From Gammaproteobacteria bacterium (GTDB lineage: Bacteria; Pseudomonadota; Gammaproteobacteria; JBCCGL01), in the NCBI GenBank assembly GCA_965277715.1, contig OZ255836.1, forward strand, positions 3,904,001 to 3,968,000: a stretch of DNA of 64,000 nucleotides. The letters are read 5' to 3'. Below are positions 1 to 63,067 of this stretch, in pieces; position 1 is the stretch's first letter; the number at the start of each line of letters is the position of its first letter. Below the pieces are notes generated by a model. It was not told the DNA's origin. It worked only from the letters and a program-made list of their open reading frames with translations, and did no database searches. The translations under genes and the position numbers were made by a program.

Positions 1-37
1 AGTAAAAGAAAATGAATGAAGTAAGATTCAAGTACGC

Positions 38-109
38 ATCTAACAAGCGCATGCAGCCGGACTTCGGCAAACTGACGCTTGCCTCAGCCGCTGATGCGGG
101 GCGTTAGCA
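38..109 (+). other. attC site
   Basis: ATCTAAC...GCGTTAGCA with imperfect inverted arms (CGCATGCAGC/GCTGATGCG, extrahelical G). Confidence 0.9.
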
Positions 110-114
110 ATCTT

Positions 115-591
115 ATGAATCGACGCAAGCTATTAGCAACATTAACTGGTTTAACTTTGATTGGTGGCCTTATTTTGGCGGCAACCCCGTTCGTGGGTTC
201 TCTGAGTCCAAATAAAGTTGCAAAAAGTAACGCAAAAGTAAGGGTGAAAATTACTGACATCCCTGAAATTGGTGCTTTCGAAGTTGATTACCGGTGGTAC
301 AAGGCTTTAGTCGTAAAAAAACCGGAAATGGCAGTCTTCCTAATGCCATATTACGACAACGCATACCGCTTGCCTGATCCAACATGGGAAAGGCCGTTTG
401 TTCCGTGCCATAACTTCATTACCGATGAGAAAGGTTTTTCCTGCAAAGATCCAAGTTTGCATGAAAGCTGGAATGCGCAAGCAACATGGGATTTCACGGG
501 CAAAACTAAAGGAACCTGGATGCCAAACCTGCGACAAGCTAAATTTATAATAGAAGGTAAGCATCTTGTTCTTAGCCCGGAGTACAACTAA
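115..591 (+). CDS. Cassette protein; Tat-type N-terminus, Rieske ISP (PetA)-like but without Fe-S boxes
   Basis: ATG 115 just after attC; NRRKLL plus hydrophobic helix plus PFVGSLSP; only two Cys, no CxH/CxxH boxes. Confidence 0.6.
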   Translation: MNRRKLLATLTGLTLIGGLILAATPFVGSLSPNKVAKSNAKVRVKITDIPEIGAFEVDYRWYKALVVKKPEMAVFLMPYYDNAYRLPDPTWERPFVPCHNFITDEKGFSCKDPSLHESWNAQATWDFTGKTKGTWMPNLRQAKFIIEGKHLVLSPEYN

Positions 592-592
592 T

Positions 593-703
593 TGCTAACA
601 AAGCAGTCAAATTGACAGCTTTTCCGTCACTTGTTTATGTGGCGGTCGCTACGCTGCCACAACACAATCAACTACAAAGCTGCAATTTACTGCGGCGTTA
701 GGC
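593..703 (+). other. attC site
   Basis: TGCTAAC...GCGTTAGGC; arms GCAGTCAAATTGACAGCTTT/AAAGCTGCAATTTACTGC. Confidence 0.92.
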
Positions 704-713
704 ATAAAGACTG

Positions 714-1091
714 ATGGGACTATTCAACAAAAAAAATCCTGAAACAGATTGGGATCTAGAACATCTTACTGATCAACAACTACATGATCTTCCGCTGTTC
801 GAACTTCAGAGGATCCGAAACAAGCGATGGGCGCATGGCCTTGATGAGTTGCAGAAAAGAGCAGAGGACGAGTTAAAGCGCAGAGACCCACGAGAAAACT
901 GGGAATGCCTTAGATGTGGCAATAAAGCATACCACCAAAAAGAAATACGTGTATCCGGTGGTTTAACATCGTCATGGCTGAACCTTGAAACAGAAAAATA
1001 TCACGCGCTAATCTGTAATTATTGCGGAAAAACAGAATTTTATAGTGTGCTAAGAGGCGGTTCTTTAACATTAGACTTTTTGGGGGGTTAA
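714..1091 (+). CDS. Cassette protein with C-terminal zinc ribbon (COG3478-like)
   Basis: CLRCG...ICNYCGKTEFY pattern. Confidence 0.75.
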   Translation: MGLFNKKNPETDWDLEHLTDQQLHDLPLFELQRIRNKRWAHGLDELQKRAEDELKRRDPRENWECLRCGNKAYHQKEIRVSGGLTSSWLNLETEKYHALICNYCGKTEFYSVLRGGSLTLDFLGG

Positions 1092-1092
1092 T

Positions 1093-1164
1093 GCCTAACA
1101 AAGCAAATCACCTGGATAAAATTTCCGCTGCGCTCCAATTTTCCCAATGTTTGCGGCGTTAGGA
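1093..1164 (+). other. attC site
   Basis: GCCTAAC...GCGTTAGGA with inverted arms. Confidence 0.9.
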
Positions 1165-1183
1165 CTTAAGGAGAAATCAACAG

Positions 1184-1229
1184 ATGACGGATGATTCAAT
1201 AAATAGCATTGATCAAGCAATTGAAAAAC
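1184..1229 (+). pseudogene. 5' stub of a cassette gene, truncated by a RAYT-element end
   Basis: AAGGAG SD plus ATG 1184 (MTDDSINSIDQAIEK), then abrupt switch to the 250-bp repeat. Confidence 0.65.
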
Positions 1230-1479
1230 GGATAATAGGACAGGCACTATATAGATAAGTGCAAAGATACCCCGAAAATCGAAAACGGTACCCAGGATAG
1301 CCAAACCTGTGTTTTTTCACCTATTTGAAAGATATTCGGTGTAATGATCTAACTATTGAGCCTTGTTTTAATGAAAAACATTTTTTCAGGCAAAACAAAA
1401 ATAACCCATTATTAGTGAGTTGGGAAAATCCAGAAAATTGGAAGAGTAAAGCGGTTGAATGACTATCCGGTATCAGCAG
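1230..1479 (-). repeat. 250-bp copy of the downstream end of the RAYT-like element
   Basis: Near-identical to 3201-3450 (about 4 transitions); includes the last codons of the transposase (ADTG*). Confidence 0.92.
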
Positions 1480-1713
1480 GGATCATTCAGGACAGGCACT
1501 GATGGACGTAAATAGACTGCAAAAAGGGCGGTTTGTACACGTATAAATTCTTGTAAAGCGGAGAGTGCTATATGACAATCTAAAGCCGAAGATTTAGGGA
1601 GTCGTTCCAGCACTTTTTTGTCTGTTATTTGCGATTTTTGTAGGTTTTTGTCATGTTAATCAATATTTTAGTCTGTTTTTATGAACTCAGTCTCCCGAAA
1701 TTATCGCGATTCC

Positions 1714-1762
1714 ACATAATATTGTTATCGAGGATTCGTTCCTTGATAATAGGCTGTTATGT
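1714..1762 (+). other. Atypically short attC-like site (49 bp)
   Basis: ACATAAT...GTTATGT; arms TTATCGAGGA/TCCTTGATAA; GTTATGTGA is complementary to TCACATAAC at 2509. Confidence 0.6.
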
Positions 1763-1790
1763 GAAATTCAAATAGATGGAGTCATAAATT

Positions 1791-2516
1791 TTGACAGAAG
1801 ATGAACTTAAATCTCTGATTTATCTATCCAGCATCCCTATCAAGAGTATTGGGTATGACAAGATGCCTACTGGAATTGCATCATCTTGCATAATTGAATA
1901 TTCGAACAAGCACATTCTTCTAACAGTTCAACATGCAACTGGAGATATGAAAAATTGGTGCCTTGAGCTTAAATATGAAAAAGGAAAGGGAGTTCAAGTA
2001 AAGCCATTGGGAGCAATGAACTTCCTTTCATCTATTAACGTACAAAACGGTGAGTCTAAAGATATTGACTTTTCATATGTTGAAATTGACAAGGCACTAA
2101 TACCCTACTGGCAAGAAATTGATCCAAAGTCTGGCGATGTACTAAACGAAGCTCCGAGGTTAATGAGTAATATTGACTTCGACTTACTGCCCACTGAAGG
2201 TGAATTTTACGGGTTTTCAGGCCAAGTTATGCCTGAGTGTGTTGGCAATGCACTTTATACAGAGTATAAAATATACACCGGATTGAAATACGTTGGAGAT
2301 GAAGGGGAATATTATAAATTTGAACTTCCTGATGCACACCCAGGGCATGAGCACTTCAAAGGATGCAGCGGTGGCCCAATAATTGATACTCAAGGGCGAG
2401 TAGTTGCATTGGTTTGTAAGGGAGATATAGCTAGTAATATTGTGTATGGCATCTCTTTAAAACGCTATGAAATTGTACTTAATGTGACTTATGGCGAATT
2501 ATCAGAGATCACATAA
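1791..2516 (+). CDS. Cassette: trypsin-like serine protease
   Basis: Triad motifs LTVQHA, DFSY, GCSGGP; stop lies in the attC core. Confidence 0.8.
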   Translation: MTEDELKSLIYLSSIPIKSIGYDKMPTGIASSCIIEYSNKHILLTVQHATGDMKNWCLELKYEKGKGVQVKPLGAMNFLSSINVQNGESKDIDFSYVEIDKALIPYWQEIDPKSGDVLNEAPRLMSNIDFDLLPTEGEFYGFSGQVMPECVGNALYTEYKIYTGLKYVGDEGEYYKFELPDAHPGHEHFKGCSGGPIIDTQGRVVALVCKGDIASNIVYGISLKRYEIVLNVTYGELSEIT

Positions 2517-2614
2517 CAAGCGCCTGCAATCTGACCTCCGGCCACTGTCACCTTTTGTGCAAAAACCGCACAAAAGGCGCCAGTAACCTCCGGCAGTTGA
2601 GGCGGGCGTTATAT
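2511..2614 (+). other. attC site
   Basis: ACATAAC...GCGTTATAT; central hairpin TTTTGTGC/GCACAAAA. Confidence 0.92.
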
Positions 2615-2663
2615 TCGATATGGAATGCCACCAAAGTAGTCTCCGACGGCACTAAGGCTTAGT

Positions 2664-2990
2664 TCATTTGCTTACGTTAGAACCCATTGATTTATCGGTA
2701 ATTGTTTTTACAACATAAGTATAGGGGCCGTTAATTGGTTTTTCTGCAATCCATGCACAATACCATCCTGTGCCCCAATTCAGGCCAGTATTCCAGGTGT
2801 TGTTTGATGAGCTAGTATCCCAACACCAAGCTTTGGTTTCGTTTTGTGGGTTTGACGGGAAATCACTTTCATTGTAAACACGTAATTGGCCTTGCTGAGC
2901 TCTAAAGGGCGAGTTAGTGTCCCATTTAAGCCAAAGATTGCCTTGATCTTCATATGCTTCCAATGTCCAAGAAAATTTGTTAGTTGCCAT
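2664..2990 (-). CDS. Inverted cassette gene; Trp-rich 108-aa hypothetical protein
   Basis: GGAG SD upstream on the - strand; lies between GTTATAT 2608 and ATATAGC 3131. Confidence 0.75.
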   Translation of the reverse strand: MATNKFSWTLEAYEDQGNLWLKWDTNSPFRAQQGQLRVYNESDFPSNPQNETKAWCWDTSSSNNTWNTGLNWGTGWYCAWIAEKPINGPYTYVVKTITDKSMGSNVSK

Positions 2991-3130
2991 TGTTATTTCT
3001 CCAATTTCGTAAATAAAAAATGTGTGTGTTTAGCCTATAACAAAATGCTTTTGCTACAGAACAAATTGAATTATAAAGCGATTACCCCGTTGAAGATATT
3101 ACATGGCATTACACCTTAATCTTGCTTCCA

Positions 3131-3197
3131 ATATAGCAATCGGCTGCTGTCGGACTATCAAAAGTTCCGGCTTCGCCTCCACTTTTTCCAGCCGCAG
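3131..3197 (+). other. attC truncated by the RAYT-like element
   Basis: ATATAGC (degenerate core) AATCGGCTGCTGTCGGAC...CCGCAG, then element sequence instead of the R' end. Confidence 0.7.
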
Positions 3198-3208
3198 CAG
3201 GGATAATA

Positions 3209-4476
3209 GGACAGGCACTATATAGATAAGTGTAAAGATACTCCGAAAATCGAAAACGGTACCCAGGATAGCCAAACCTGTGTTTTTTCACCTATTTGAA
3301 AGATATTCGGTGTAATGATCTAACTATTGAGCCTTGTTTTAGTGAAAAACATTTTTTCAGGCAAAACAAAAATAACCCATTATTAGTGAGTTGAGAAAAT
3401 CCAGAAAATTGGAAGAGTAAAGCGGTTGAATGACTATCCGGTATCAGCAGCAATTACCCTGTGAGATAATGCCTTCCAATAACGTGATTCAAAGTGTTGG
3501 GTGTTGTTTAACCAGTTCTCTTTGTCAATGTTGAGTCGTTGCAATATTGGCGGCAGGTCTTGAGCAATATACCCCCGCTTGTCTTGCCGAATGGCTCTGC
3601 CCGTCCAGTCAACCAAAGTCAGATAGTCAGTAAAATTTAGCGGGATGCCGGTAGATGTGTCGTTAATGGTCTCGGAGAAATGCAGAAGTGGTTTTAATGG
3701 GGCATTGAACTGCTGTAGTTCTTCACCAGTGATTTGTTGTTGGACAGCCTGTCTGAGATTGAACTGGGGAGTGATACGCTCCTGAATACTGGTGTAATCG
3801 GCATTCTCGGGTTTGTCGGCGATACCAGCACGGACAGGGTTGAGGTCAACATAGACCATATTGGCCAATAAGGCTTCATCAGAGCGCAGTGCCTGTGATT
3901 TAAATCGGGCCTCCCAGAAATGGCCAGTGCACTCGTCTTCTTTGTTGGCCCGCCGGGCAATGGGTTCGTTAAGGCACTTCATAAACCAGCTTAAGCTGCT
4001 CAGACGTTGGCGCCAGGCGGTGACAATATCGCCAACGGCGTGATATTCAACGGTACTGAGGGTTTCCCCCGCCTGCATTTTTTGCACCAACAGGGAGCCT
4101 TTGTGCAGGCTTAACCAGCGGTTGATAACTTCCTGGTCAGTTAGTGTATCGATTTGTTCTGGGTTGAGTTTAACGGTGAGGTGGTAATGATTGCTCATGA
4201 TGGCGTAGGCGCACAGGTCAACGGCAAAGAGCGATGAGAGCAGCCGGATGCGGTCGACAATCCATTGCCGACGATGCTCATAGTCGCGTTGGGTCAGTGG
4301 ATCCAGTCCGCAGAGAAAGGTGCGCCGTACACAGCGCGATACGATGTGGTAGTAGGGGGTGTCTGATAGTGAGATTTGGTCTTTGCGGGGGCGGGTCATG
4401 GTCAGTTCCTTTAACGTTGGCTGGACGCCATCCTAAAAGAGAGTAAGGCTATCTGTCAATTATTTGATGCCTGTCC
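3209..4476 (-). mobile_element. RAYT-like Y1 transposase element with 9-bp inverted ends GGACAGGCA
   Basis: GGACAGGCA 3209-3217 and TGCCTGTCC 4468-4476 flank the transposase. Confidence 0.7.
3434..4399 (-). CDS. REP-associated tyrosine transposase-like (HUH/Y1) protein
   Basis: YYHIVSRCVRR, MSNHYHL (HUH), GHFWEARFKS, YVDLNPVRAG. Confidence 0.92.
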   Translation of the reverse strand: MTRPRKDQISLSDTPYYHIVSRCVRRTFLCGLDPLTQRDYEHRRQWIVDRIRLLSSLFAVDLCAYAIMSNHYHLTVKLNPEQIDTLTDQEVINRWLSLHKGSLLVQKMQAGETLSTVEYHAVGDIVTAWRQRLSSLSWFMKCLNEPIARRANKEDECTGHFWEARFKSQALRSDEALLANMVYVDLNPVRAGIADKPENADYTSIQERITPQFNLRQAVQQQITGEELQQFNAPLKPLLHFSETINDTSTGIPLNFTDYLTLVDWTGRAIRQDKRGYIAQDLPPILQRLNIDKENWLNNTQHFESRYWKALSHRVIAADTG

Positions 4477-4871
4477 CAGAAGCTCCAGAAGCTTTGAGTC
4501 ACTCAAGCATGATCAGTTATTGACAGCCCGAGCTTGGGCGATAAAAGAACTGTTTCGTGATTTTTGGACGTATAAGACAGCGGGTTGGGCAAAGCGTTTC
4601 TTTAGCGCATGGTATGCGTGGGCAATTCGGTGCCGATTGGACAGCATAAAGAAAGTGGCCAAGATGATAAAAACGCACATGCCGAACATATTGACATGGT
4701 TTAAGCACACAATAAGTAATGCCGTGTCAGAGGGTTTGAATTCAAAAATTCAGACGGTCAAATCGAATGCAAGAGGGTTTCGTTCGTTTGAAAGCTACCG
4801 GCGGAGTATTTTGTTTTACTGCGGAAAGCTGGATATGGAACCAGTGGCTTCACAATAATCGGGGAAGAACC
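4477..4871 (+). mobile_element. ISL3-family remnant (transposase C-terminus 4520-4858 plus right end)
   Basis: SNAVSEGLNSKIQTVKSNARGFRSF motif; terminal GAAGAACC 4864-4871. Confidence 0.88.
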
Positions 4872-4903
4872 CATAATTTGGGCAGGTTACAGCGACGTTA
4901 GCA
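4872..4903 (+). other. Right half of an attC interrupted by ISL3
   Basis: GCAGGTTACAGCGACGTTAGCA; GTTAGCAC is complementary to GTGCTAAC at 5280. Confidence 0.75.
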
Positions 4904-4923
4904 CAAATCAAATCGGAGTATTT

Positions 4924-5280
4924 ATGAAGAGCACCCTAATTTTATTAATATCTTTGTTTTTACCTTTGAATGTCATCGCCGAATGTCTTTTCCTTGAAAA
5001 TCAAACAGAAATCAAAGAAGTTTCAGCACTTAGAAATCAAGCAAATCTTGTCTTCGATGCAGAGGGAGAAAACTGTGAATCTATCACGGACAGAGATACA
5101 CGTAGTTCTTGTCAATGTAAGTATCGAAAAGAACCCTTAATCAAATTCAAAAAGCAATATGATGAGGTTCTTAGTAAAAAGCCAGAATATAGCGAAAGAA
5201 TGGTATGTTATGCTGATAATAACGGAGGAATTTCAGTGAACTTTATTGCTTACAAGCACATGGTTACCTGGTGTATTTAG
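4924..5280 (+). CDS. Cassette: secreted Cys-rich hypothetical protein
   Basis: GGAG SD, signal peptide MKSTLILL...VIA, six Cys. Confidence 0.8.
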   Translation: MKSTLILLISLFLPLNVIAECLFLENQTEIKEVSALRNQANLVFDAEGENCESITDRDTRSSCQCKYRKEPLIKFKKQYDEVLSKKPEYSERMVCYADNNGGISVNFIAYKHMVTWCI

Positions 5281-5384
5281 TGCTAACAAGTCAATCAACT
5301 ACACGCCTTTCAATTAAGTGGCGAGCGATGAGCAGAGAGGGATATCGTTGCATTGCCCTATCCGAAATCAATCGACTCGACTGG
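5281..5384 (+). other. Left half of an attC fused to the 3' remnant of a deleted cassette
   Basis: TGCTAACAAGTCAATCAACTACACGCCTT has no right arm; about 75 bp later a new GCCTAAC core has no matching GTTAGGC. Confidence 0.65.
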
Positions 5385-5510
5385 GCCTAACAATGAGCTG
5401 CAGCGGACGGCTAACCCTTTGTTTGATTTAAGTCTAGTAGTCAATTTTAAATGCTGTGGTATGGTTTGAGTCTCTGGAAGGATTAGCCGCCGCTGAGCTG
5501 GGCGTTAGCT
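5385..5510 (+). other. attC site
   Basis: GCCTAAC...GCGTTAGCT; arms AGCTGCAGCGGACGGCTAA/TTAGCCGCCGCTGAGCT. Confidence 0.92.
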
Positions 5511-5653
5511 TCCAATTTTGGCACCTGTATTATTTTGTATAACTCCCTGTAATATCGTGTAATGTTCTTTTGGTTAATTTTTGCTAGCTTTAATTTACTG
5601 TCTTCTTGGCAGTAATATTTTAGTTAACTTACAGAATATTATTGGAGGCAAGC

Positions 5654-6304
5654 GTGAATAAAGTATTTGATAAAGTAAAAAACACCACAACATTTATTGT
5701 TAATAATAGAGAACTAAAAATCCCAGGGGTGGGAAATGCAAATCAAGGCCGTCTGACCTCGAAGGTGACCCATGATTTTCCATTTAGCATTGAGCTTCTT
5801 GCGCCAATGATGATAGTTGGGTATCCGACTTACAGTGAATACAAAGATGGCGCTTGTGATCTTTTTAAGCCGTCCACATTACTTGGTGGTTACAAATATC
5901 AACGAAGTTACAGATTTTCAAACGGGGCTACATTTTCAAGCTTCCACAATATCAACTTTGATACGGAAAAAAACTCTTTAGCAGGGAATTTTAGCACAAA
6001 GAATTTCCCGGAAGATGCCCTTAAAGGCGACTGGAGTGTTTGTGATTTTATTGAGACATTCATTCCTCATGCTCCAGGCATTATTAAGAGTATTATGGCA
6101 GTACAGTGGAAAGATGGAGATAAGACTCTGCAAGCAATAATTGAATCGGAATATTACTTCAATCATAATAAGGAGCTTCCTTGCCTCCATTGGCGGCATG
6201 TTAAATTTGCTAACGAACACGATGGTAAAAACTATACTCAGTCGGAAAAGCTAACGGTTTTTAATAACCTTGAATTTGGTGAGCCAACAAACCAGTTTAA
6301 ATAA
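5654..6304 (+). CDS. Cassette: GFP-like beta-barrel protein with a non-canonical Ile-Val-Gly triad
   Basis: GGAGG SD plus GTG 5654; motifs collinear with copepod/amphioxus GFPs as recalled from memory (QGRLTSK, FSxxLL, GGYxxxR, FPED, C-terminal E). Confidence 0.72.
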   Translation: MNKVFDKVKNTTTFIVNNRELKIPGVGNANQGRLTSKVTHDFPFSIELLAPMMIVGYPTYSEYKDGACDLFKPSTLLGGYKYQRSYRFSNGATFSSFHNINFDTEKNSLAGNFSTKNFPEDALKGDWSVCDFIETFIPHAPGIIKSIMAVQWKDGDKTLQAIIESEYYFNHNKELPCLHWRHVKFANEHDGKNYTQSEKLTVFNNLEFGEPTNQFK

Positions 6305-6330
6305 GCTAACAATACGCTCTACCCGACGCC
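6304..6330 (+). other. Left half of an attC; right arm lost
   Basis: AGCTAACAATACGCTCTACCCGACGCC with no complementary arm or GTT downstream. Confidence 0.6.
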
Positions 6331-6454
6331 AAATGTTTTTTTACAGGCCAATAATAATTAATTTTCATATGGTGCGCTAGCTTGCCTATGTTTTTCTGCG
6401 AAAGCACCAATACCTCGTGAGCTGTAAACTACAGATAAATATAGGATCAAACAC

Positions 6455-7774
6455 ATGCTGAACAAATCAATAATACCTGCATTAGCTACCTTTTTTTTGT
6501 GCCTGACAATGAAGCTGGCGTACGCGAGCGAAGAAGTGAGAATTCTGGGTTTTGGCGGAACATTCGCTGGCGAAGCAGAGGGGGCTTATATACCAAAGTA
6601 CAAGGCAGCAGAGCGTTGTCTAGTGGAAGGTAATGGGGTGGATTATCCACAACCAATAATTACGCTACTCAAGACAGCTATAAATGATGAACGGGTGCTG
6701 AAGTGCGATCCTTCTCAAGATTCATCAGCAGGGATTGCGCTTGAAAAAGGGTCAAACAAAAACAGCACATGCGGCAATAAAACACAAAAGTGTACACTCA
6801 CCATACCAAAAAGGAATGGTGCAGATGACACCAAGGCTGTCAAACTAGTCTTCGATGATGTCGACAGGCTCGATAGTGCAAAAATGACACCCAAAGACTG
6901 GTTGATGGTAGGTAAAAAGACCATAGAAGCCCAAAAAAACTCGACTACCAAAGGTGTCGTGATCACTCACGGCACTGACACCATGGAGGAAACAGCCTAT
7001 ATACTAAGTCTGCTTTCAGAGATAAAAAAGCCTGTAGTACTGGTCGGATCAATGAGGGCGCCGAACCATTTAAGCGCTGATGGGTTAATGAATCTACTCA
7101 ATGGCGCAGCCACAGCGGGTGACAACAAGGCAAGCAGCATAATGCTGGTGATGAACGAGAGAATCTACGGTGCTCGGGATGTAACAAAGACCAACACCAC
7201 AAACGTAGGAACGTTCGAATCAAGAAATACAGGGCAACTGGGAACGGTATATTTTGGTGATGCTCGTTTCTACAATGAAGCCATTGATCGTAAGAGTATA
7301 ATGTGCGACGAAAGAGGGCAGCCACAATGCTTATCTATATCCCACTTGAAGTCCTTAAGTAATGAGGAAAGTAAATCCATACCTATCATATACGAGCAAG
7401 CGGGCGGAACCAATGGCCTGATAACCGCAGCAACAAGCGAAGGAGTAGAGGGCATTGTTATTGCGTCAACAGGCAATGGCGGAACGACACAAACAACGGA
7501 TGAAGAACTGAGTAAGGTTAGAACACCGGTATACGTTGCAGTGAGTTCACGCACAGGGAGTGGTAGAACCACTAATGTACCATGCATCAAGAAAACCGAT
7601 CAAACCACCGACTGTGATCCCGGTGACCCAAATCCCAATGTGAAAATATTTACTGCAGACAACCTGAACCCGCAGAAGGCAAGGATACTGCTTATGATGG
7701 CCTTGGCTGCAACTGAGGGAGAAAGCGTTGACGCGAGAATGGAAAAAATTATGACGTATTTTAGCATCTATTAA
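6455..7774 (+). CDS. Secreted type II L-asparaginase/glutaminase-asparaginase with Cys-rich inserts
   Basis: Signal peptide; GGTFAG, HGTDTMEETA, VLVGSMR, VTKTNT, LNPQKARILL. Confidence 0.88.
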   Translation: MLNKSIIPALATFFLCLTMKLAYASEEVRILGFGGTFAGEAEGAYIPKYKAAERCLVEGNGVDYPQPIITLLKTAINDERVLKCDPSQDSSAGIALEKGSNKNSTCGNKTQKCTLTIPKRNGADDTKAVKLVFDDVDRLDSAKMTPKDWLMVGKKTIEAQKNSTTKGVVITHGTDTMEETAYILSLLSEIKKPVVLVGSMRAPNHLSADGLMNLLNGAATAGDNKASSIMLVMNERIYGARDVTKTNTTNVGTFESRNTGQLGTVYFGDARFYNEAIDRKSIMCDERGQPQCLSISHLKSLSNEESKSIPIIYEQAGGTNGLITAATSEGVEGIVIASTGNGGTTQTTDEELSKVRTPVYVAVSSRTGSGRTTNVPCIKKTDQTTDCDPGDPNPNVKIFTADNLNPQKARILLMMALAATEGESVDARMEKIMTYFSIY

Positions 7775-8041
7775 TCCACGTCCAGTCGGACGGGTGTTGA
7801 AAATTAACTGCCTGAAGTTAATTTGTTAAATTAAATTTGACTATGTGCTACGACTATGGGTTTCCTGGAGAGTTCAAGCTTAAAGAGAGTGGGCAATCAG
7901 AAGCCGTAGGCTTTTTCTTGAGAGCATTTGAAACTCAAAAATACGACCTAAATAGCCTTGTGCCAAGTATTGGGGAGGCCCAAAGTCCAAGAGGGATTTT
8001 ATAAGGTTTTAAAGACGGGTGTTAATGAGCTGCTAGGTGAT

Positions 8042-8155
8042 GCATAACAAAAAGCTGCACCTGACAATTTTTGCTACGCTCAATTGTGTATGTCGCGTGG
8101 CTCCATTTTACACAATTTCTCTCCGCAAAAATTACAGGTGAGCTTGGCGTTATGC
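8042..8155 (+). other. attC site
   Basis: GCATAAC...GCGTTATGC; arms AAGCTGCACCTG/CAGGTGAGCTT. Confidence 0.92.
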
Positions 8156-8191
8156 GTCAAAACGAAAAAACCAGCTAAAGGCTAATAATCT

Positions 8192-8857
8192 ATGAGAGTT
8201 ACGACTTATATTGTCCGAAGGGGCAACACTCTAGTAAACATTTCTAAAGCATACGGAATCACGCTAGAAGAACTGATTGTTGAAAACCCTCAAATTCGCA
8301 ATCCAAATCTAATCCGCGTCGGGGAGCATATTCTAGTACCCCGGAGCCATGATGGCCCCAACCCACACGTAACCTTGGCTGAAGAGAATATTCCTCTTGG
8401 ACTGCCACTCTGGCATAGGATCGCGATGCGTGAAGAAGGCGTGTCAGAGGTGCCTGGAGCTGGAAATAATCCCAGAATTTTAGAATATCATTCCACCACT
8501 TCCTTGGGCCGGGCAGATGCTAGACAAGATAAAACAGCTTGGTGCTCATCGTTCGTTAACTGGTGTATCGAACAAACAGGAAGGCAAGGTACTGACAACG
8601 CGTGGGCACGCAGCTGGGAAAATTGGGGGCGTGATATAGAAACTTCAACTATTGGTTCTATAGCTGTTTTCTCGAGAACCAATTCAACTACTAATGGCGG
8701 TCATGTTGGGTTCGTAGCCCACGAAACAACGTCATCTGTAATTGTGTTGGGTGGAAATCAAGGTAACACCGCAAAAGAGTCAACGTACCCAAAATCTGGG
8801 AGGAAAGGTAAGTATTATTACAAGCTACTTTCATGCCGATGGCCAGAGGACGCATAA
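8192..8857 (+). CDS. Cassette: LysM plus TIGR02594-type (NlpC/P60/CHAP-like) peptidoglycan hydrolase
   Basis: LysM YIVRRGNTL...NPNLIRVGE; AWCSSFVNWC, GHVGFV, LGGNQ. Confidence 0.85.
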   Translation: MRVTTYIVRRGNTLVNISKAYGITLEELIVENPQIRNPNLIRVGEHILVPRSHDGPNPHVTLAEENIPLGLPLWHRIAMREEGVSEVPGAGNNPRILEYHSTTSLGRADARQDKTAWCSSFVNWCIEQTGRQGTDNAWARSWENWGRDIETSTIGSIAVFSRTNSTTNGGHVGFVAHETTSSVIVLGGNQGNTAKESTYPKSGRKGKYYYKLLSCRWPEDA

Positions 8858-8939
8858 CAATACCTTGCAGCCGGCCCACTTTCCGCTACTTCCCTACCGT
8901 CATTCGCTCCAAGTCGGCGGCTGAATGCAGGCGTTATGC
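8852..8939 (+). other. attC site
   Basis: GCATAAC...GCGTTATGC with inverted arms. Confidence 0.88.
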
Positions 8940-8994
8940 ACTCAAGTGTTTTCTGGTAGGTTTCTCTTTCTAATTTTAAGAATCAATCACAAGA

Positions 8995-9233
8995 ATGACA
9001 CTTTATGAGGCAATCGTCTGGTGCACTGGAATTGCGGGTGCCTTGATTCTATTTGGGTTGTTCAGAAAAGAGCTAGGGCGAGCAATTGACAGAGTGAAGG
9101 GCGTAACCGGGAAAAACTGGGCCATAGATATTGGGTCTGGTGCAAAAGAAACAGAGCCATCTAAAGATGCTTGCAAGATTGAACGGAACAAATTGGCAAA
9201 TGTTTTCTGGATTGGGCATGACCTACTTTGGAC
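8995..9233 (+). pseudogene. Cassette membrane-anchored gene truncated by IS66
   Basis: ORF stops at a TAA supplied by the IS66 left end; no closing attC. Confidence 0.75.
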
Positions 9234-9319
9234 GTAAGCGCCAAAGAATAGACGTCTAGCAATTACTCGGGTTGGTCCTCACACTGCACCACAGCAACCC
9301 AATACCCGCTAGGTGTAAT

Positions 9320-9637
9320 ATGAGTAATAAAGAACGCGCGTTGTACTGGCGCAATCAAATTGAACAATGGCAAGCATTCGGTTTGAGTGGTGCGCAGTTT
9401 TGCCAGGATAACGGCATCAACTTGAAGCCGTTTTACTATTGGCACCGAAAATGTTCGCGTAAAACTCTTCAAGCAGTGCAGAGTAACATGCCTGTAGCAG
9501 GCTTTACCCAAGTGATGGTGGCTGATAGGCAAAGGGCTGATCCGGGTTTGTGTTTTACGCTGGCCAATGGCTGTGCCATTTCTGGCATTACCGCCGCTAA
9601 CGTGACGTTAGTTGGCGCGTTACTGGCACAGTTATGA
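9320..9637 (+). CDS. tnpA: IS66 accessory protein TnpA
   Basis: WxxxIEQWQAFGLSGAQFC...FYYW HTH pattern. Confidence 0.88.
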   Translation: MSNKERALYWRNQIEQWQAFGLSGAQFCQDNGINLKPFYYWHRKCSRKTLQAVQSNMPVAGFTQVMVADRQRADPGLCFTLANGCAISGITAANVTLVGALLAQL

Positions 9638-10002
9638 AGGCCCGTTATTTACGGCCATCGCTCGATATTGCGCAGGTGTTTTTATACCGAGAGGCGGTGG
9701 ACTTTCGTAAGCAAAGCAATGGCCTTGCGGCCATTGTTGAGCGAGAGCTTGGCCACAACCTGTTTGATGGTGGCTTATACGTGTTCACCAATCGCCACCG
9801 CAACAAAATCAAATGTCTGATGTGGGAGGACAACGGTTTTGTACTGTATTACAAAGCCTTGGCCGAAGAGCAGTTTAAGTGGCCTGACCTCGATGAGGAA
9901 GTCATATCACTGACCGGCACACAAATAAACGGGTTGCTTGATGGCTATGATTTAGCCGCAATGAAAGGCCACAAAGTATTGCATTACGAGTCTGTTTTTT
10001 AG
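9634..10002 (+). CDS. tnpB: IS66 accessory protein TnpB
   Basis: VDFRKQSNGL, YVFTNRHRNKIKCLMWEDNGFVLYYK, FKWP. Confidence 0.93.
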   Translation: MKARYLRPSLDIAQVFLYREAVDFRKQSNGLAAIVERELGHNLFDGGLYVFTNRHRNKIKCLMWEDNGFVLYYKALAEEQFKWPDLDEEVISLTGTQINGLLDGYDLAAMKGHKVLHYESVF

Positions 10003-10069
10003 CCCGCTAAAGGGTGTAAAAACATTTTATTTTAATGATTTTTAGACGGTTATTGGGTATTATTACCCG

Positions 10070-11701
10070 ATGGTTTTAGCATCAGAAATTCAACAAAAAC
10101 AACGCAATTACACCGGCTTAACGGCGGCTGAATTAGTGATCGTGCTGGCAGAAAAAGAAGCCGAATTAACGCACCATAACCAAATTATTCAACGTCATAA
10201 AAACACTATTCGACGTCACACAAACACCATTAAAAACCGCGATCACTACATTCGTTTGCTGGAAGAACGGTTGCGTCTTTCCAAGGTTCAGAGGTTCGGT
10301 GCTAACAGCGAAAAGCTTGCCTTCCAGATTGACTTGTTTGATGAAGCGGAACTCGAACAAGCCATTGTCGACATTGATAACCAACTACCGGATGAGTTGC
10401 TACCTTAGCCTACGACCACGAACAAGAAAAAACGTCAACGCGGCTTCTCCAACCGTTTACCCCGTGTGCGCGTTGAGCTGGCCTTAAGCGATGAGGAAAA
10501 ATCAGGCGCTACACGCACTTTCTTTGTGAAAGTCAAAGAAGAACTCCAATACATTCCCGCACAACTCAACGTTTTAGAGTACTGGCAAGAAAAGGCCGTC
10601 TTCAGCTACGCAGGTGATGACCACATCATCGCCGCGCAACGCCCCATACACCCTTTAGGTAAGTGCTTTGCCAGCACGGCCCTGCTCGCCAACATCATGG
10701 TGTCCAAATACGCCGATGGGTTGCCCTTGTATCGCCAGGAAAGCATTTTAAAGTGTTATGGACATGCCGTGAGCCGCACCAACATGGCCAACTGGATGAT
10801 TCGCCTGGAAGATGTCTTAAAACCCCTGATGACCTTGCTGCGGGAAAGTCAAAATGCCGGTGATTATGTGCAAATGGACGAAACGCGTATCCAGGTACTC
10901 AAAGAAAATGGCAAAACCGCCCAATCCGATAAATGGATGTGGCTAACGCGCGGTGGCCCTCCAGCCCAGCCCAGTGTGTTGTTTGAATACGACCCCTCTC
11001 GTTCGGGCGAAGTGCCACAACGCTTACTGGAAGGTTTTCAAGGCACTCTGCAAGTCGATGGCTATTCAGGGTATAACGGGGTGTGCGAGCAGCAAAATCT
11101 GACACGTATCGGTTGCTGGGATCATGTGCGCCGAAAATTCATTGATGCCATTAAAGCCGCCGATAAAGCAAACACGAAAAAATGCCGTGCCTCGAAAGCC
11201 GATGTCGCCATCGGTAAAATCCGCAAGCTCTATCTCATTGAGAAAAAGATACAAGCGCTTGAACCCGCAGAAAAACAAAGGCTTCGCCAAGCACTTAGCC
11301 AACCGGTGTTGGAAGACTTCAAACAATGGCTGGATAAGCATATTACTAAGGTGGCTAAAAAGTCCCTTACTCGTAACGCCATGGACTATGCACTGAATCA
11401 ATGGCATACCCTCACAGGCTACTGTGATGATGGACGGTTACACATCAGCAACGTGCTGGCTGAAAATGCCATTAGGCCTTTTGCCGTGGGTAGAAAAGCC
11501 TGGTTGTTTGCCGATTCAACCCGTGGCGCCCATGCCAGTGCCACCACATGTTACTCATTGATCGAAACGGCCAAAGCTAATGGGCTTGAACCCTATGCGT
11601 ACATACTGCACGTCCTTGATCATATCGGCAGTGCCGATACTCTTGAAAAGAGAGAGGCCTTGCTACCTTGGCATGTCGTTTTGGACATTACCTTGGAATA
11701 G
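10070..11701 (+). pseudogene. tnpC: IS66 transposase TnpC with in-frame TAG at 10406-10408
   Basis: ORFs 10070 and 10466 share a frame; DETRIQVL, DGYSGY, CWDHVRRKF, SNVLAENAIRP. Confidence 0.9.
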
Positions 11702-11725
11702 AGGCTGATTTAAGGGCGCTTACTA

Positions 11726-12550
11726 TTTATCGACGACCTCGACCGCTGCGAAGAAGCCGTTGTCGTCAAGCTGCTGGAGAGCATCAAACTCTACCTCGGC
11801 AGCCAGCGCTGCGTCTTCGTCCTCGGCATCGACCCCAATGCCGTGCTGGGCGCGCTGGGCCGCTACTGGCAGCGCCCGCAGGAAGACAACCGCGAATACC
11901 TGGAAAAACTCTTCCAAGCCACCCTGGAAGTGCCCATTCCCGCGCCAGGCGAAGTGAAAACCCTGATTACTCAACAACTGAAGCAACACAAATTTCCCAA
12001 TATCACCATAAACGCCGAAACCATCGAACAACTGCTCGAACCCAACCCGCGCAAAATCAAAAACTTCCTCAACAGCCTCTGCGCCACCTGGTCGCTCTAC
12101 ACCCAGAACCAGGCCGACGACTATATCGACGACCAGCGTTTTATCCTGTTTCACTACCTGCGGCTCTACCATCGGTCTGTCTGGCGCCTGCTGGAACACC
12201 AGCGCTGGGCCTTGCAACTGCTGCACCGGGTACTCACCGGCAGTAACGCACCACTGCATGACGTGCCTAAGTACATTGGTGAAGCCGAGCAGGCGGTGAT
12301 GAAAGAAATGCTGTCGCGGGCGTTTAGCCATGTACTTAAAAACGTCGAATACGGTGATCACGACCCACTCAAACACCGGGGTGTCCCGCTGGAGCAGGCT
12401 GTGCAGTGGTTTATCGAACGCCAGGATCGCAAACGTTCAGACGAATACTTTATCGCGCTGTTTAAAATCATACACGAACACGAACACCTCAATGCCAATA
12501 TGGTTTTTCTAAACCCATCCACCCCAAAGGTAGATAACCATGCTGAATAA
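11726..12550 (+). pseudogene. KAP-family P-loop NTPase, 5'-truncated by IS66
   Basis: Open frame from 11726 reads FIDDLDRC...FVLGID...YLEKLFQ...NPRKIKNFLN; Walker A missing. Confidence 0.88.
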
Positions 12551-15500
12551 CCCCACCTACCAGCGCAACCAATTCCTCAGCGCCCTGGGTGACTATATGC
12601 GCTGGCTCTACCGGCGCCACCACCGCCTGCTGGGCCTGATAGAGGCCAGCGACGAGCCAGACCCGATCAGCCTGACACAGATATTTGTCCCCATGCGCGC
12701 CGGTGAGGAAGACATTGCCGACGACGACATGGCCACCCCGCAGGACGTGGCGGAAGAAACCCTGCCGGGGCGGGATGTTTGGTCACTGCTCGCAGACACT
12801 TCCTTCCTCGCCCTGTCTGGCCGCCCTGGCAGCGGTAAAACCACCCTGGTGCAGGCGACCATCCTCGAACTGTGCGGCGAACACTCCAGCTCCCTGCGGG
12901 CGGCGATGGCGGGCGAGCACGGTATCGCGCCGCTGCCGATCATACTGCGCACTATCCCCGCCATCGACACAATCACCACCCTGGAACAACTGCTCGACGC
13001 CTGGTGGCGTGAAGAGCAAAAAGACGCCGCCGCCGAAGGCATCACCCTCGACACCGGCCGCCTGCGCCAGTGGTTTGATGCACCGACAGACGCCCCGGCA
13101 GACGCCCCGGCAGACAAACGCTACCCGCTGCTGATACTGTTTGATGGCATCGACGAAGTCGGCGGCATAGAAACCCGCAGCCGCATCTATGCCCTGGCGC
13201 AAGACGCCCACCAACGCGGCCACCGGGTACTGATCACTGGCCGCCCCGCCGGGTTTCACGCCCTACAGACCGACGACCTCCCCCAGTCAACAGGGCCTGC
13301 AATGGCACCACTAAACCTGCACTACCTGCTGCCCCTCGCCTGGGAACAGATTCGGCAGTTTATCCACCAGTGGTACCAACTGCGCGGTGAATGGCGCAAA
13401 CAGCGGGATCGTGGCATCGCACAGTTTCTGGACGCCATGCGGGATTCCCAGCGGGCGTATTTACTGGTACTGGCCCGGCGGCCGATCTTTATCAGCCTGA
13501 TGGCCCTGGTGCACTGCACCCAAAACCAAATGCCCGATGGCCGCGCCCAACTCTACAGCACCATTATCGAACTCTACCTGGGCCGCCAGGAGCGGCACCG
13601 CCAACTGCGCTTTTCCGTTAGTGGCAGCGCCCTACCGCACTGGCCAGACCAGGAAAAACGCATGGTACTGGGCTACCTGGCCTGGCAGAGCCAACTCAAG
13701 AGCGCCGATGTGGAGGGTGCTTATGAAACCGGAAACCGCCGGGTAATCTGGCGCCGCAAGGAAATGCTGGAACAGATCCGCAGCCAACTGCAAAGTGGCC
13801 ATTACGGGCGCTTTGCCGCCATCAAGGCAGGCGATGCCGACAAACTGCTGGATTATTTTTTACACCCCTCGGGCCTGTTGGTCGAGCCTGCCGAGGCGCG
13901 CATCCAGTTCGCCCACCTGAGCTTTCAGGAATACCTGTGTGCCGACTTTCTCTTTACCCTGGGCGGCAGGCGCCTGCAAAAAACCCTCGAAGACCGCCTA
14001 TTGCCCAATCTACACAAGCCCGGCTGGGATGAAGTGGGGATCTTACTGCTGGCGATCATGCAGGAAAACGATAACCGCGGGCACTTTGAGCTATTGGGTT
14101 GGCTGGATTTGGCCCAGGTGGATCAGGCCAGTCTGTTCATACAAGCCTATACAGGTAACGAACTGTCGTTTACCGACCGGGAGCAGTTGCAATGGCTGCC
14201 ACTGGCGATGGCCGCCTGCCTGCTGCACCCCCGGTGTGACTTTGCCGAATCGCTGGCCAGGCGGGCAGAGCTGGCGGAACCGGGGCGGGCGTTGCTGCAC
14301 AAACTGTTGACAGCAGATAGCCTCAAAGCAGCCTGGCAGCCCTTACAACAGGCACTAGAAACTGATACACCCTGGGGTATTGACGACGTGGCGCAACACC
14401 CAATGGCTGAGAGTATGCTGAAATGCTGGAAGCATCCAAAGGATGGTAATAGTTGGGATGTTCTATCGGGTGAAGCGGAAGCCCATGCCAATGGACTGTT
14501 GAGTTTATTAAATGGAAGTGGTTGGGTAACGCACGATGACCGTTTTAACCCGCTGGCAACTGACTGGCAACCGTTGCTGGTCGATTGGCTGCACCGATCA
14601 ATAATAACACCGGGCGGTGACTGTTCACTGCTGTGGGCGCGGGATAAAGCACGGCTACCAATACCCACCAACACAGCCTATGAGGTTGACCATTTGCTGC
14701 CTGCTTATGGGAGGCTATGGGCAGAGGTTAGTGCGCAAGTGCCAATGGATGTGATGCTCTTGCAGGGAGAAGCATACGACGATTTTTTTTGGGATGTTTT
14801 TACCCAGGCATCCGTTTCTCTGTTACTGCACCCGCAGGATGACTTATTGCCACGGCCTCGTTTTGCAATGATGCTTTACCAGGTTACGCTGTTAAGCGAA
14901 GGTGCGGCTGAAGGCCGCACCTTCGCCGATTTGTCGCTGTCGCGGTCGCTGTCGCTGTTGCGGTCGCGGTCGCAGTCGCGGTCGCAGTCGCTGTTGCGGT
15001 CGCAGTCGCTGTTGCGGTCGCAGTCGCTGTTGCGGTCGCAGTCGCTGTTGCGGTCGCGGTCGCGGTCGCTGTCGCAGTCGCTGTTGCGGTTGCTGTCGCT
15101 GTCGCAGTCGCTGTCGCTGTTGCGGTCGCTGTTGCGGTCGCAGTCGCTGTCACTTTTGATAGACGATGTTGAATGGATTAGCCAGGAATCAACAGAAAAG
15201 CTAAAAAGCGTTATTGAGTGGATTAAACGTAAAAAACCAGATAAGGCGTTATTAACCCCCTGGGTATCGGCGCTGGAGCAATACGCCCACCGCTGGGCAG
15301 CGCTGGATTGGTTTAACCAGCAGTGTGAAGACCCACAACTGGCTGACCACCGTGGCCTTATCCATGGCCACCCGCTGCCGCTTAGCCTGGGGTTATTTGA
15401 CGATAAGGGCAGACCCCACGCTGAACAGCGGCGGCACCACTGGCTGGCCCTGCGGGAGTGGTTAGAGGATGATGAGGCCATGCTAGGATTTGTTTTCCCC

Positions 15501-15707
15501 AATGGCCTGGCAGACAATGATCGGCGGGTGATTCTCGATGATCTGGCGTTACTGCGCCAGCAACCCTGGTCACCGATAGCGTTTATCGATGCCGTGTTGG
15601 AAGACTGGCCACAACAAAGGCCCATTCTCGACTATCGCCTGGAGACGGCAGAAAAAAGACTGATGGATGCCACTGAGGGATTGTTACAACAACTGGAGGC
15701 GTTGTAA
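12540..15707 (+). CDS. NACHT-type STAND NTPase, 1055 aa
   Basis: Walker A GRPGSGKTT, Walker B LILFDGIDEV, ITGRP, FAHLSFQEYL. Confidence 0.9.
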   Translation: MLNNPTYQRNQFLSALGDYMRWLYRRHHRLLGLIEASDEPDPISLTQIFVPMRAGEEDIADDDMATPQDVAEETLPGRDVWSLLADTSFLALSGRPGSGKTTLVQATILELCGEHSSSLRAAMAGEHGIAPLPIILRTIPAIDTITTLEQLLDAWWREEQKDAAAEGITLDTGRLRQWFDAPTDAPADAPADKRYPLLILFDGIDEVGGIETRSRIYALAQDAHQRGHRVLITGRPAGFHALQTDDLPQSTGPAMAPLNLHYLLPLAWEQIRQFIHQWYQLRGEWRKQRDRGIAQFLDAMRDSQRAYLLVLARRPIFISLMALVHCTQNQMPDGRAQLYSTIIELYLGRQERHRQLRFSVSGSALPHWPDQEKRMVLGYLAWQSQLKSADVEGAYETGNRRVIWRRKEMLEQIRSQLQSGHYGRFAAIKAGDADKLLDYFLHPSGLLVEPAEARIQFAHLSFQEYLCADFLFTLGGRRLQKTLEDRLLPNLHKPGWDEVGILLLAIMQENDNRGHFELLGWLDLAQVDQASLFIQAYTGNELSFTDREQLQWLPLAMAACLLHPRCDFAESLARRAELAEPGRALLHKLLTADSLKAAWQPLQQALETDTPWGIDDVAQHPMAESMLKCWKHPKDGNSWDVLSGEAEAHANGLLSLLNGSGWVTHDDRFNPLATDWQPLLVDWLHRSIITPGGDCSLLWARDKARLPIPTNTAYEVDHLLPAYGRLWAEVSAQVPMDVMLLQGEAYDDFFWDVFTQASVSLLLHPQDDLLPRPRFAMMLYQVTLLSEGAAEGRTFADLSLSRSLSLLRSRSQSRSQSLLRSQSLLRSQSLLRSQSLLRSRSRSLSQSLLRLLSLSQSLSLLRSLLRSQSLSLLIDDVEWISQESTEKLKSVIEWIKRKKPDKALLTPWVSALEQYAHRWAALDWFNQQCEDPQLADHRGLIHGHPLPLSLGLFDDKGRPHAEQRRHHWLALREWLEDDEAMLGFVFPNGLADNDRRVILDDLALLRQQPWSPIAFIDAVLEDWPQQRPILDYRLETAEKRLMDATEGLLQQLEAL
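14934..15149 (+). repeat. Coding microsatellite, 36 x hexamer TYGCNG
   Basis: 216 bp of TCGCTG/TCGCGG/TTGCGG/TCGCAG/TTGCTG encoding SL/SR/LR/SQ/LL. Confidence 0.95.
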
Positions 15708-62037: not shown

Positions 62038-62075
62038 GGTGTGTTTGTTGGCGGCGCTATAGTCGGTTTAATGAC

Positions 62076-63029: not shown

Positions 63030-63067
63030 GGTGTGTTTGTTGGCGGCGCTATAGTCGGTTTAATGAC

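Follow-up and report, generated by a model that had tools for sequence, protein, structure and literature searches.

The 64,000-nt stretch of gammaproteobacterial DNA analysed here (contig OZ255836.1, positions 3,904,001 to 3,968,000; called the window throughout) carries near its left end, among attC sites of the integron type, a gene of 216 codons whose product is predicted, by sequence comparison and modelled fold in agreement, to be a GFP-fold protein, i.e. a prokaryotic member of the superfamily named after green fluorescent protein (GFP). The GFP barrel was long regarded as an animal speciality. Valine occupies the place of the chromophore tyrosine, and we consider it likely that the protein is soluble, most likely cytoplasmic and not visibly fluorescent, that it belongs to a non-tyrosine branch of the superfamily with a buried charge network, and within it to a Val-type subclade of bacteria and fungi, and that its gene is cargo of mobile elements. 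A proposal as to its chemistry, GFP-type backbone cyclisation, is joined to this reading and graded separately below.

Proteins of this kind have already been described. A preprint (Schneider & Zimmer, bioRxiv 10.64898/2026.07.29.741452, 2 Aug 2026) reports in its main text a dark, non-tyrosine GFP-fold family in bacteria and fungi, with 22 complete barrels from bacteria, fungi and corals, and gives its mobility as 'not established'. The window protein fits the definition of that family residue by residue and is, as far as its sequence and the main text of the preprint go, a new member of it. To this main text the window adds concrete vehicles, namely a gammaproteobacterial attC cassette array and, by way of a homologue, the cargo slot of a P2-like prophage; a further addition, unless the supplements of the preprint contain it, is a bacterial Val-type group beside the fungal one, with named members in Cyanobacteria and Betaproteobacteria and a gammaproteobacterium as host of the window gene. 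No integron, attC, prophage, Microcystis, Burkholderia or Cyanobacteria is named in the main text, and no paper joining integron gene cassettes with GFP-like proteins was found in the literature full text. The vehicles provide a mechanism for the patchy spread of the family, and the gene, which is small, intronless and easily expressed, suits a test of whether the self-cyclising chemistry of GFP predates fluorescence. The gene had been picked out by a model from the letters of the window (the sequence-only reading): the observation is real and the interpretation was largely right, save that its view of characterised GFPs as metazoan is out of date, the preprint having placed the family in bacteria and fungi.

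The gene and the fold of its product

The gene starts with GTG, a short distance behind a Shine-Dalgarno sequence:

5644..5648, + strand: Shine-Dalgarno GGAGG, 5 nt 5' of the GTG, from the sequence
5654..6304, + strand: GFP-fold ORF (open reading frame; P0001), 216 aa, GTG start, TAA stop at 6302-6304

Both are as the sequence-only reading had described them, and the start at GTG 5654 is shared by the relatives, which begin at the equal position of the family alignment. The protein has a mass of 24.7 kDa and an isoelectric point of 7.05; its top 19-residue hydropathy, 1.16, points to a protein without signal peptide or membrane segment.

When the protein was used as a phmmer query against the sequences of PDB chains, 183 distinct sequences were obtained at E <= 10. 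The best 60 were all fluorescent proteins, chromoproteins or constructs named after one, a single row among them being named merely 'pD5-14 D component'. The top match was Corynactis ccGFP 9 (E 1.8e-8, query 20-195 versus chain 28-207); in this alignment the chromophore, written 'X', falls within M52-G56 of the query, where it is set opposite M53, and Arg84 lies on a conserved Arg. A profile of 41 relatives matched avGFP-derived and asFP499 chains with E from 1.7e-7 to 3e-7, and in the avGFP-derived chains V55-G56 fell opposite the triad's W/Y-G and R84 opposite the R of 'QERT'. In avGFP these residues are Y66, G67 and R96, R96 being the counterpart of Arg84.

The AlphaFold2 model, built on the family alignment, has a mean predicted local distance difference test (pLDDT) of 95.3 and a predicted template modelling score (pTM) of 0.88, and DSSP finds in it 12 strand segments around a central helix (46-54). 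Foldseek returned at least 500 matches in the PDB at E <= 1e-3; among the matches listed all were fluorescent proteins or chromoproteins, with template modelling (TM) scores of 0.73-0.81 and 17-23% identity. The claim of a prokaryotic GFP-superfamily protein, for which the sequence-only reading had proposed structure prediction and Foldseek as a check, is thus borne out by phmmer, profile and model. That reading had compared the protein with copepod and amphioxus GFPs; among solved structures the best matches are cnidarian, amphioxus sequences reaching E ~4e-4 to 1e-2. The ESM Atlas (recognition 1480) gave solely Planctomycetota clusters at 0.90-0.91 and was uninformative.

The triad and the charge-network residues

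The codons of the residues which matter for the comparison with GFP are the following, the counts being taken from an alignment of 59 relatives of 190-300 aa:

5813..5821, + strand: I54-V55-G56, at the chromophore-triad position (alignments to solved fluorescent proteins)
5903..5905, + strand: Arg84, equivalent of the catalytic Arg of GFP (alignments to solved fluorescent proteins; Arg in 58/59 relatives)
6053..6055, + strand: Glu134, charge-network residue (59/59 relatives; E134 of the preprint)
6152..6154, + strand: Tyr167, charge-network tyrosine, Tyr168 of the preprint founder (56/59; the remainder are gaps in truncated rows)
6194..6196, + strand: Arg181, second buried arginine, R182 of the founder (55/59 relatives)
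6245..6247, + strand: Glu198, taken as equivalent of the catalytic Glu of GFP, E199 of the founder (54/59; preceded by Gln196)

The positions given for the triad, the Arg and the Glu in the sequence-only reading were all correct, and its central observation, a triad lacking an aromatic residue in a protein that retains the equivalents of Gly and Arg, stands on the alignment of V55-G56 and R84 to solved fluorescent proteins. In the table of triads that it had called for, position 55 is Val in 49 of the 59 relatives, Met in 3, Thr in 3, Phe, Leu, Ala and Ile in one each, and Tyr in none. G56 and W152 are present in all 59 and Q196 in 53, and R84 and E198 are kept even in rows just 24-32% identical to the window protein. 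Our own alignments to solved chains end at profile residue 189-204, before Glu198; Glu198 is in register with E199 of the founder, and its equivalence to E222 of avGFP comes, via this E199, from the structure-based alignment in the main text of the preprint (10.64898/2026.07.29.741452).

According to that main text, the family keeps the Gly, Arg and Glu, replaces the tyrosine by M, V, I, T or F, and shares an invariant buried network (R87/E134/Y168/R182/E199) with S67, W152 and a Q197 cap, the network residues being buried and in contact in the authors' own models. For the orientation of Arg and Glu towards the helix, which the sequence-only reading had named as a refuting check, the basis is these models of other members. 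The correspondence with the window protein is one to one, R87/E134/Y168/R182/E199 becoming R84/E134/Y167/R181/E198 and P64/S67/W152/Q197 becoming P58/S61/W152/Q196, and V55 is non-Tyr. Common to the two are also the eleven-strand barrel, the Gly/Arg/Glu core and the lack of a signal peptide. The difference lies in the position within the family, the window protein being in a bacterial Val-type group next to the fungal branch and far from the Met-type founder.

With fluorescent GFP-like proteins the window protein shares the fold (TM 0.73-0.81), sequence homology and the Gly and Arg of the chromophore-forming core, but identity is only 17-23% and the obligatory Tyr is replaced by Val, so that a visible p-hydroxybenzylidene chromophore cannot form. 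Whereas the pocket of fluorescent GFPs is mostly hydrophobic, that of the window protein would hold a buried charged network; its host is a prokaryote and its gene is borne by a mobile element.

Relatives and phylogeny

Relatives of the protein are few. A word-indexed search of 5.8 billion proteins gave 89 candidates, 41 of them at E <= 1e-3 (identity 48-100%), and an exhaustive search of 1.84 billion cluster representatives gave 43 at E <= 1e-3, 21 at E <= 1e-10 and 6 at E <= 1e-30; with so few matches in searches of this size, the family is rare. At least two of these, P0061 and P0075, are probably false matches, with Ig repeats or other repetitive sequence.

The named bacterial relatives are from Microcystis aeruginosa CS-338/01 (P0083, 70% identical) and from many strains of Burkholderia pseudomallei (64% identical), one homologue of the B. 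pseudomallei cluster being labelled 'green fluorescent family protein' in public records. The named fungal relatives are from Aspergillus welwitschiae (P0030, 57-58% identical, E 5.2e-73), A. niger, A. neoniger and Sclerophora amabilis. Identity to the window protein is 31-39% in the Met-type relatives and 88% in another relative, P0082. The main text of the preprint (10.64898/2026.07.29.741452) also names a member from Aspergillus welwitschiae, together with Lepraria and Acropora, and describes its fungal branch as Val-type and 33-36% identical to the Met-type founder.

A quick maximum-likelihood tree was built from 54 rows, with support from the Shimodaira-Hasegawa-like approximate likelihood ratio test (SH-aLRT); P0002, identical to the query, and the truncated P0039, P0040, P0041, P0042 and P0092 were left out. 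In it, 45 Val-type rows form a clade with SH-aLRT 100, borne on a long stem. Within it, 30 short proteins (216-253 aa), among them those of the window, Microcystis and B. pseudomallei, are grouped with moderate support (89), 11 longer ones from Aspergillus and Sclerophora with a support of 97, and 4 with a hydrophobic N-terminal extension with a support of 98. The Met-, Phe-, Leu- and Thr-type rows fall outside the Val clade on long branches, their placement being unsure according to the tool. Identity is 57-60% between the bacterial Val-type group and the named fungal proteins, and 50-60% across the longer-protein groups.

Searches of genome collections returned little. Among the GTDB species representatives (185,579 genomes) there were 21 pattern matches and, at this sensitivity, no confirmed relative; tblastn found no match in 72,556 plasmid records or in 50,697 phage records. 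The absence from the representative genomes is consistent with a strain-level accessory gene. In metagenome contigs, 101 pattern matches yielded two relatives, L001 and L002, which were rejected as a source of bacterial context: the first has a frame shift, the second an intron-like frame break after ...KPSTLLG, and both look eukaryote-type.

Two side observations concern the relatives. P0034-P0037, a small Val-type clade, have a signal-peptide-like hydrophobic extension of ~40 residues at the N-terminus, and these members of the family may be secreted. P0073, a weak match of the window protein, is a tandem GFP-domain protein of 689 aa with three PF01353 stretches (E 5.9e-29).

The attC array

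Seven attC sites, all on the + strand, lie within 38-8939. They were defined by eye, alignment and folding; a strict attC scan found 2 of the 7, and one pattern search none. Each has an invariant TAACAA near its 5' end and a GGCGTTA near its 3' end, the cores fitting RYYYAAC and GTTRRRY. Of the GGCGTTA copies in the first 9 kb, all 7 are preceded by a TAACAA at a distance of 59-113 nt; 10 GGCGTTA are found in the remaining 55 kb. The bottom strands of all seven fold into hairpins with paired R boxes, a small internal loop and single-base bulges, with z-scores of -7.4, -6.4, -4.2, -3.2 and -2.2 in five of them and weak ones, -1.3 and -1.2, in two. The sites and the features of the GFP-fold cassette are:

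38..109, + strand: attC site 1 (alignment, folding)
593..703, + strand: attC site 2 (alignment, folding, z -4.16)
1093..1164, + strand: attC site 3 (alignment, folding, z -1.17; the R boxes pair)
2511..2614, + strand: attC site 4 (alignment, folding, z -6.40)
5385..5510, + strand: attC 5' of the GFP-fold gene, R'' GCCTAAC ... R' GTTAGCT (-20.1 kcal/mol, z -3.23, 0/200 shuffles as good)
5505..6310, + strand: GFP-fold cassette, surviving part (149-nt leader, ORF, R''-type core; guanine plus cytosine (GC) content 0.366)
5595..5615, + strand: putative terminator-like hairpin with T-run in the cassette leader, 39 nt 5' of the start codon (pattern scan)
6304..6310, + strand: AGCTAAC, R''-type core of the cassette's own attC, 3' half gone; overlaps the last base of the stop codon
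6455..7774, + strand: asparaginase-like ORF, 439 aa (Pfam Asparaginase 1e-43, Asparaginase_C 1.1e-15), now in the attC-to-attC interval of the GFP-fold gene
8042..8155, + strand: next complete attC, beyond the asparaginase-like gene (-27.7 kcal/mol, z -7.37)
8852..8939, + strand: last attC seen (alignment, folding, z -1.33; the R boxes pair)

The attC upstream of the gene ends 144 nt before the GTG, and its recombination point (G/TT, 5504/5505) sets the start of the cassette. The AGCTAAC at 6304-6310 is the exact reverse complement of the GTTAGCT at 5504-5510, and the cassette start TTAGCT is complementary to AGCTAA (6304-6309) at 6/6 positions; the + strand of the window holds just 4 copies of this heptamer. 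For a cassette to exist as a circle, its start has to complement its own R'' core. The same 6/6 was found in the cassettes starting at 104, 698 and 8150, and the rule fails (4/6 and 3/6) in 2 units with insertion sequences or repeats. At six co-oriented ORFs an R''-type core starts -5 to +3 nt from the stop. Base composition also varies along the region, GC being 0.426 for 1-9000 versus 0.515 for 12001-64000, and 0.442 for 6311-8149 versus the 0.366 of the GFP-fold cassette. Our reading is that the GFP-fold gene was once a separate cassette, the attC of which would have lost its 3' half, fusing it to the next unit.

As a whole, the array would be a complete integron or else a CALIN, a group of attC sites that lacks an integrase. 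With CALIN and integron cassettes it shares short ORFs in one orientation with an attC a few bases behind each, the RYYYAAC and GTTRRRY cores, the bulged hairpin and the presence of insertion sequences; it differs in that neither integrase nor attI is visible in the window, the attC of the GFP-fold cassette itself is truncated and the cassette fused to the next unit. The sequence-only reading had noted matching attC cores on both sides of the gene and had called the protein mobile. Both heptamers are indeed there, the upstream one as the R' of a complete attC, the downstream one as an R''-type core alone without a full attC. As to mobility, the attC platform is present, with an intact site just 5' of the gene, but a present-day mobility does not follow, the cassette's own attC being truncated and no integrase being visible in the window.

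A promoter scan of 5280-8200 gave 4 sites versus 5.6 expected, none of them on the + strand ahead of the GFP-fold ORF, and Rfam gave no match in 1-12000 of the window at E <= 0.1. A 4419-nt contig present in two public runs (X1 and X2, possibly of the same sample as the window) is identical to window 4844-9262, with 0 differences and at even depth; in 84% of a third run, X3, no contig over 5201-6000 was found, and nothing is drawn from this.

Insertion sequences in the array are represented by a weak IS200-like Y1 ORF (3434-4399, - strand), an ISL3 fragment and IS66. A direct repeat of 250 nt (1230-1479 and 3201-3450, 98% identical) lies in two different cassette intervals, and its second copy abuts the IS200-like Y1 ORF. 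In the public runs the contigs end at 1259, 3230 and 9262, in the manner of repeat edges. Those of X1 and X2 also contain a low-depth joint (106>41) across attC site 1, not seen in X3, and a second joint, 1288>9234, one side of which measures 29 nt. A second orphan R''-type core, TGCTAAC(AA) at 5281-5287, stands directly after the stop of an ORF of 118 aa with a hydrophobic N-terminus (4924-5280), ~100 nt before the attC at 5385-5510, and no attC fold was found on its 3' side (5283-5384). Other cassettes encode a Zn-ribbon DUF2082 protein (714-1091) and a LysM-CHAP peptidoglycan hydrolase-like protein (8192-8857).

A homologue in a P2-like prophage

Two IMG/VR contigs, L048 and L049 (97% identical over 18.2 kb), encode a protein that is 226/227 identical to the B. 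pseudomallei cluster representative and 64% identical to the window protein:

L048 10001-10684 (also in L049): Burkholderia-type GFP-fold homologue, directly behind P2-type tail genes

The genes before it are those of tail fibre H, fibre assembly G, sheath, tape measure, phrog_76 and phrog_52 (gpD-like), and after it come a hairpin and several ORFs without any Pfam or PHROG family. Its GC content is 45%, versus 59-72% in the flanks. A phage-type integrase is found ~8 kb away, at the end of the contigs, and no attC motifs are present in L048 or L049. From this gene order, the Burkholderia-type homologue is a putative cargo gene (moron) of a P2-like prophage.

Function and alternative explanations

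The two carriers of the gene, an integron cassette and a prophage, suggest that it confers an accessory trait of conditional use. The working part of the protein would be the interior of the barrel rather than its surface. There, the I54-V55-G56 segment may form a preorganised turn which undergoes backbone cyclisation of the GFP type, R84 being the electrophilic activator and E198 the base; this would yield a non-aromatic imidazolinone, UV (ultraviolet)-absorbing and dark at visible wavelengths, which the second Arg, the Glu and the Tyr might tune. The proposal is made because the residue set that GFP needs is kept (G56 in 59/59), and we regard this cyclisation to a dark non-aromatic heterocycle as tentative, a good possibility that stops short of being probable. 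Chromophore formation in barrels with an aliphatic triad appears possible in view of the title of PDB entry 6jc5, one of the Foldseek matches, which describes a blue fluorescent protein with a Leu-Leu-Gly chromophore. The Y66L variant of GFP was reportedly the subject of work by Rosenow et al. in 2004, to judge by a title in reference lists. These proteins resemble that of the window in having an aliphatic central residue in a barrel with Gly, Arg and Glu, but they are laboratory mutants of Tyr proteins, whereas the aliphatic state of the window family is natural and conserved (Val in 49/59).

Several results weigh against the reading as a whole or against parts of it. At the level of the fold, the Pfam GFP model, which the sequence-only reading had suggested as a check, did not recognise the protein: PF01353.27 gave no match at E <= 10, nor did any other family of Pfam. 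That version matches just 5 of 41 family members (best E 0.01); the precomputed PF01353.28 is listed in the protein database for 40 of 41 relatives, including P0002, which is identical to the query. As to the chemistry, E198 is replaced by Q, K or S in 5 of the 59 relatives, and R84 and E198 could be conserved for the charge network alone, since the main text of the preprint puts the strongest constraint on the network and not on the triad residue. The preprint (10.64898/2026.07.29.741452) is itself purely computational and, in its main text, states the function as unknown. As to the cassette, no complete attC of its own was found, 6305-6454 having no attC fold (z +1.76, 193/200 shuffles folding as well or better), and no tyrosine recombinase was present among the 39 other window ORFs scanned; from the orientation of the attC sites, intI would lie to the left of window position 1. 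Finally, PADLOC gave no defence-family match for the GFP-fold protein.

The alternative that survives best does without backbone chemistry: I-V-G would be an ordinary peptide, and the functional unit would be the buried network of two Arg, two Glu and a Tyr, acting as a redox or proton-coupled site, as a small-molecule site or purely as structural stabilisation, or else the barrel would be a binding module like that of nidogen G2F. G2F is likewise a GFP-fold barrel that is dark and serves a purpose other than emitting light. It is a metazoan extracellular protein-binding domain which is not known to keep the Gly/Arg/Glu core, and this counts against a G2F-like binding role. The main text of the preprint (10.64898/2026.07.29.741452), where G2F serves as remote structural analogue only, leans to the network as the functional unit: there the five residues are invariant in the 22 complete members and within the most constrained decile, the triad position accepts M, V, I, T and F, and the network keeps stable both in models and in runs of molecular dynamics, no open cleft for a cofactor being present. 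Our own table agrees, position 55 being V, M, T, F, L, A or I. Yet what is kept, with G56 in 59/59 and R84 and E198 present down to the rows of 24-32% identity, is the exact set that GFP needs for cyclisation, and no ligand, partner or activity is known. We hold this alternative to be plausible, if not quite probable.

That the gene is kept on mobile elements as a single-gene defence or fitness cassette, against phages or stress such as UV and oxidants, is in our view unlikely. It would explain why the gene is cargo in two unrelated vehicles, the integron cassette array and the P2-like prophage, where it forms a low-GC island after phrog_52, and it would suit the light-exposed hosts among those named (Microcystis and the lichen-associated fungus Sclerophora, with Lepraria and Acropora in the main text of the preprint). 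The same main text (10.64898/2026.07.29.741452) reports phage-associated and toxin-antitoxin neighbours of the founder, but also that adjacency to defence genes or mobile elements is not significantly enriched versus matched controls. The silence of PADLOC speaks against a defence role, and cargo position alone gives no function.

Quite unlikely is the possibility that the GFP-fold and asparaginase-like genes form one two-gene cassette (5505-8149) and work together. There is no complete attC between them and they are contiguous in the 4419-nt contig of the public runs; the R''-type core at the stop of the GFP-fold gene, however, complements the cassette start exactly, which is the mark of a once-separate cassette, their GC contents differ (0.366 versus 0.442), the prophage homologue has no asparaginase neighbour, and the asparaginase-like protein has a hydrophobic N-terminus which the GFP-fold protein lacks. 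This asparaginase/glutaminase-like protein (6455-7774) has, apart from the hydrophobic N-terminus seen by eye, ~125 residues before the asparaginase domain.

An artefact, i.e. a bacterial assembly contaminated by a gene of fungal or cnidarian (eukaryotic) origin or by the GFP of a cloning vector, is very improbable in spite of the 57-60% identity to the nearest named eukaryotic relatives, which are fungal, for the gene is intronless and has GGAGG and GTG, attC sites and genes of bacterial type stand on both sides of it, the 4.4-kb contig of the public runs covers it without a difference at even depth, the protein is just 22-23% identical to solved fluorescent proteins and hence not a vector GFP, and bacterial relatives (Microcystis, 70%; B. 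pseudomallei, 64%) are closer than the fungal ones.

The preferred reading, that of a dark charge-network barrel carried by mobile elements, can be extended to a wider view which we consider doubtful: non-Tyr GFP barrels might have arisen long ago in microbes and spread by way of integron cassettes and prophages, with transfer between bacteria and fungi included, and might still self-cyclise to a dark, non-aromatic heterocycle, used as buried cofactor or UV absorber for an accessory function open to selection, such as protection against stress or phages; the fluorescent proteins of animals would then be a late recolouring.

Neighbouring genes

The rest of the window is an ordinary Gram-negative chromosome, with genes for SurA, LptD, PdxA, a type IV pilus ATPase, transporters and amine catabolism. 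Its SurA is at best 41-42% identical to proteins of gammaproteobacterial genomes, with no close relative in that collection. An IS66-family element (9272-11701) begins ~330 nt after the last attC (8852-8939) and consists of a TnpB-like ORF and of a transposase in two pieces (10070-10408 and 10466-11701). Between IS66 and the core genes, 11843-15707 encodes a NACHT/STAND NTPase of 1055 aa, the start of which is overlapped by an ORF of 235 aa without family; this NTPase may be a defence gene, and PADLOC gave weak matches alone for the region (mad8, 8.8e-6). At the right end (61063-64000) lie three tandem ORFs for PD-(D/E)XK nuclease family transposases (PDDEXK_2), the last of which runs off the window.

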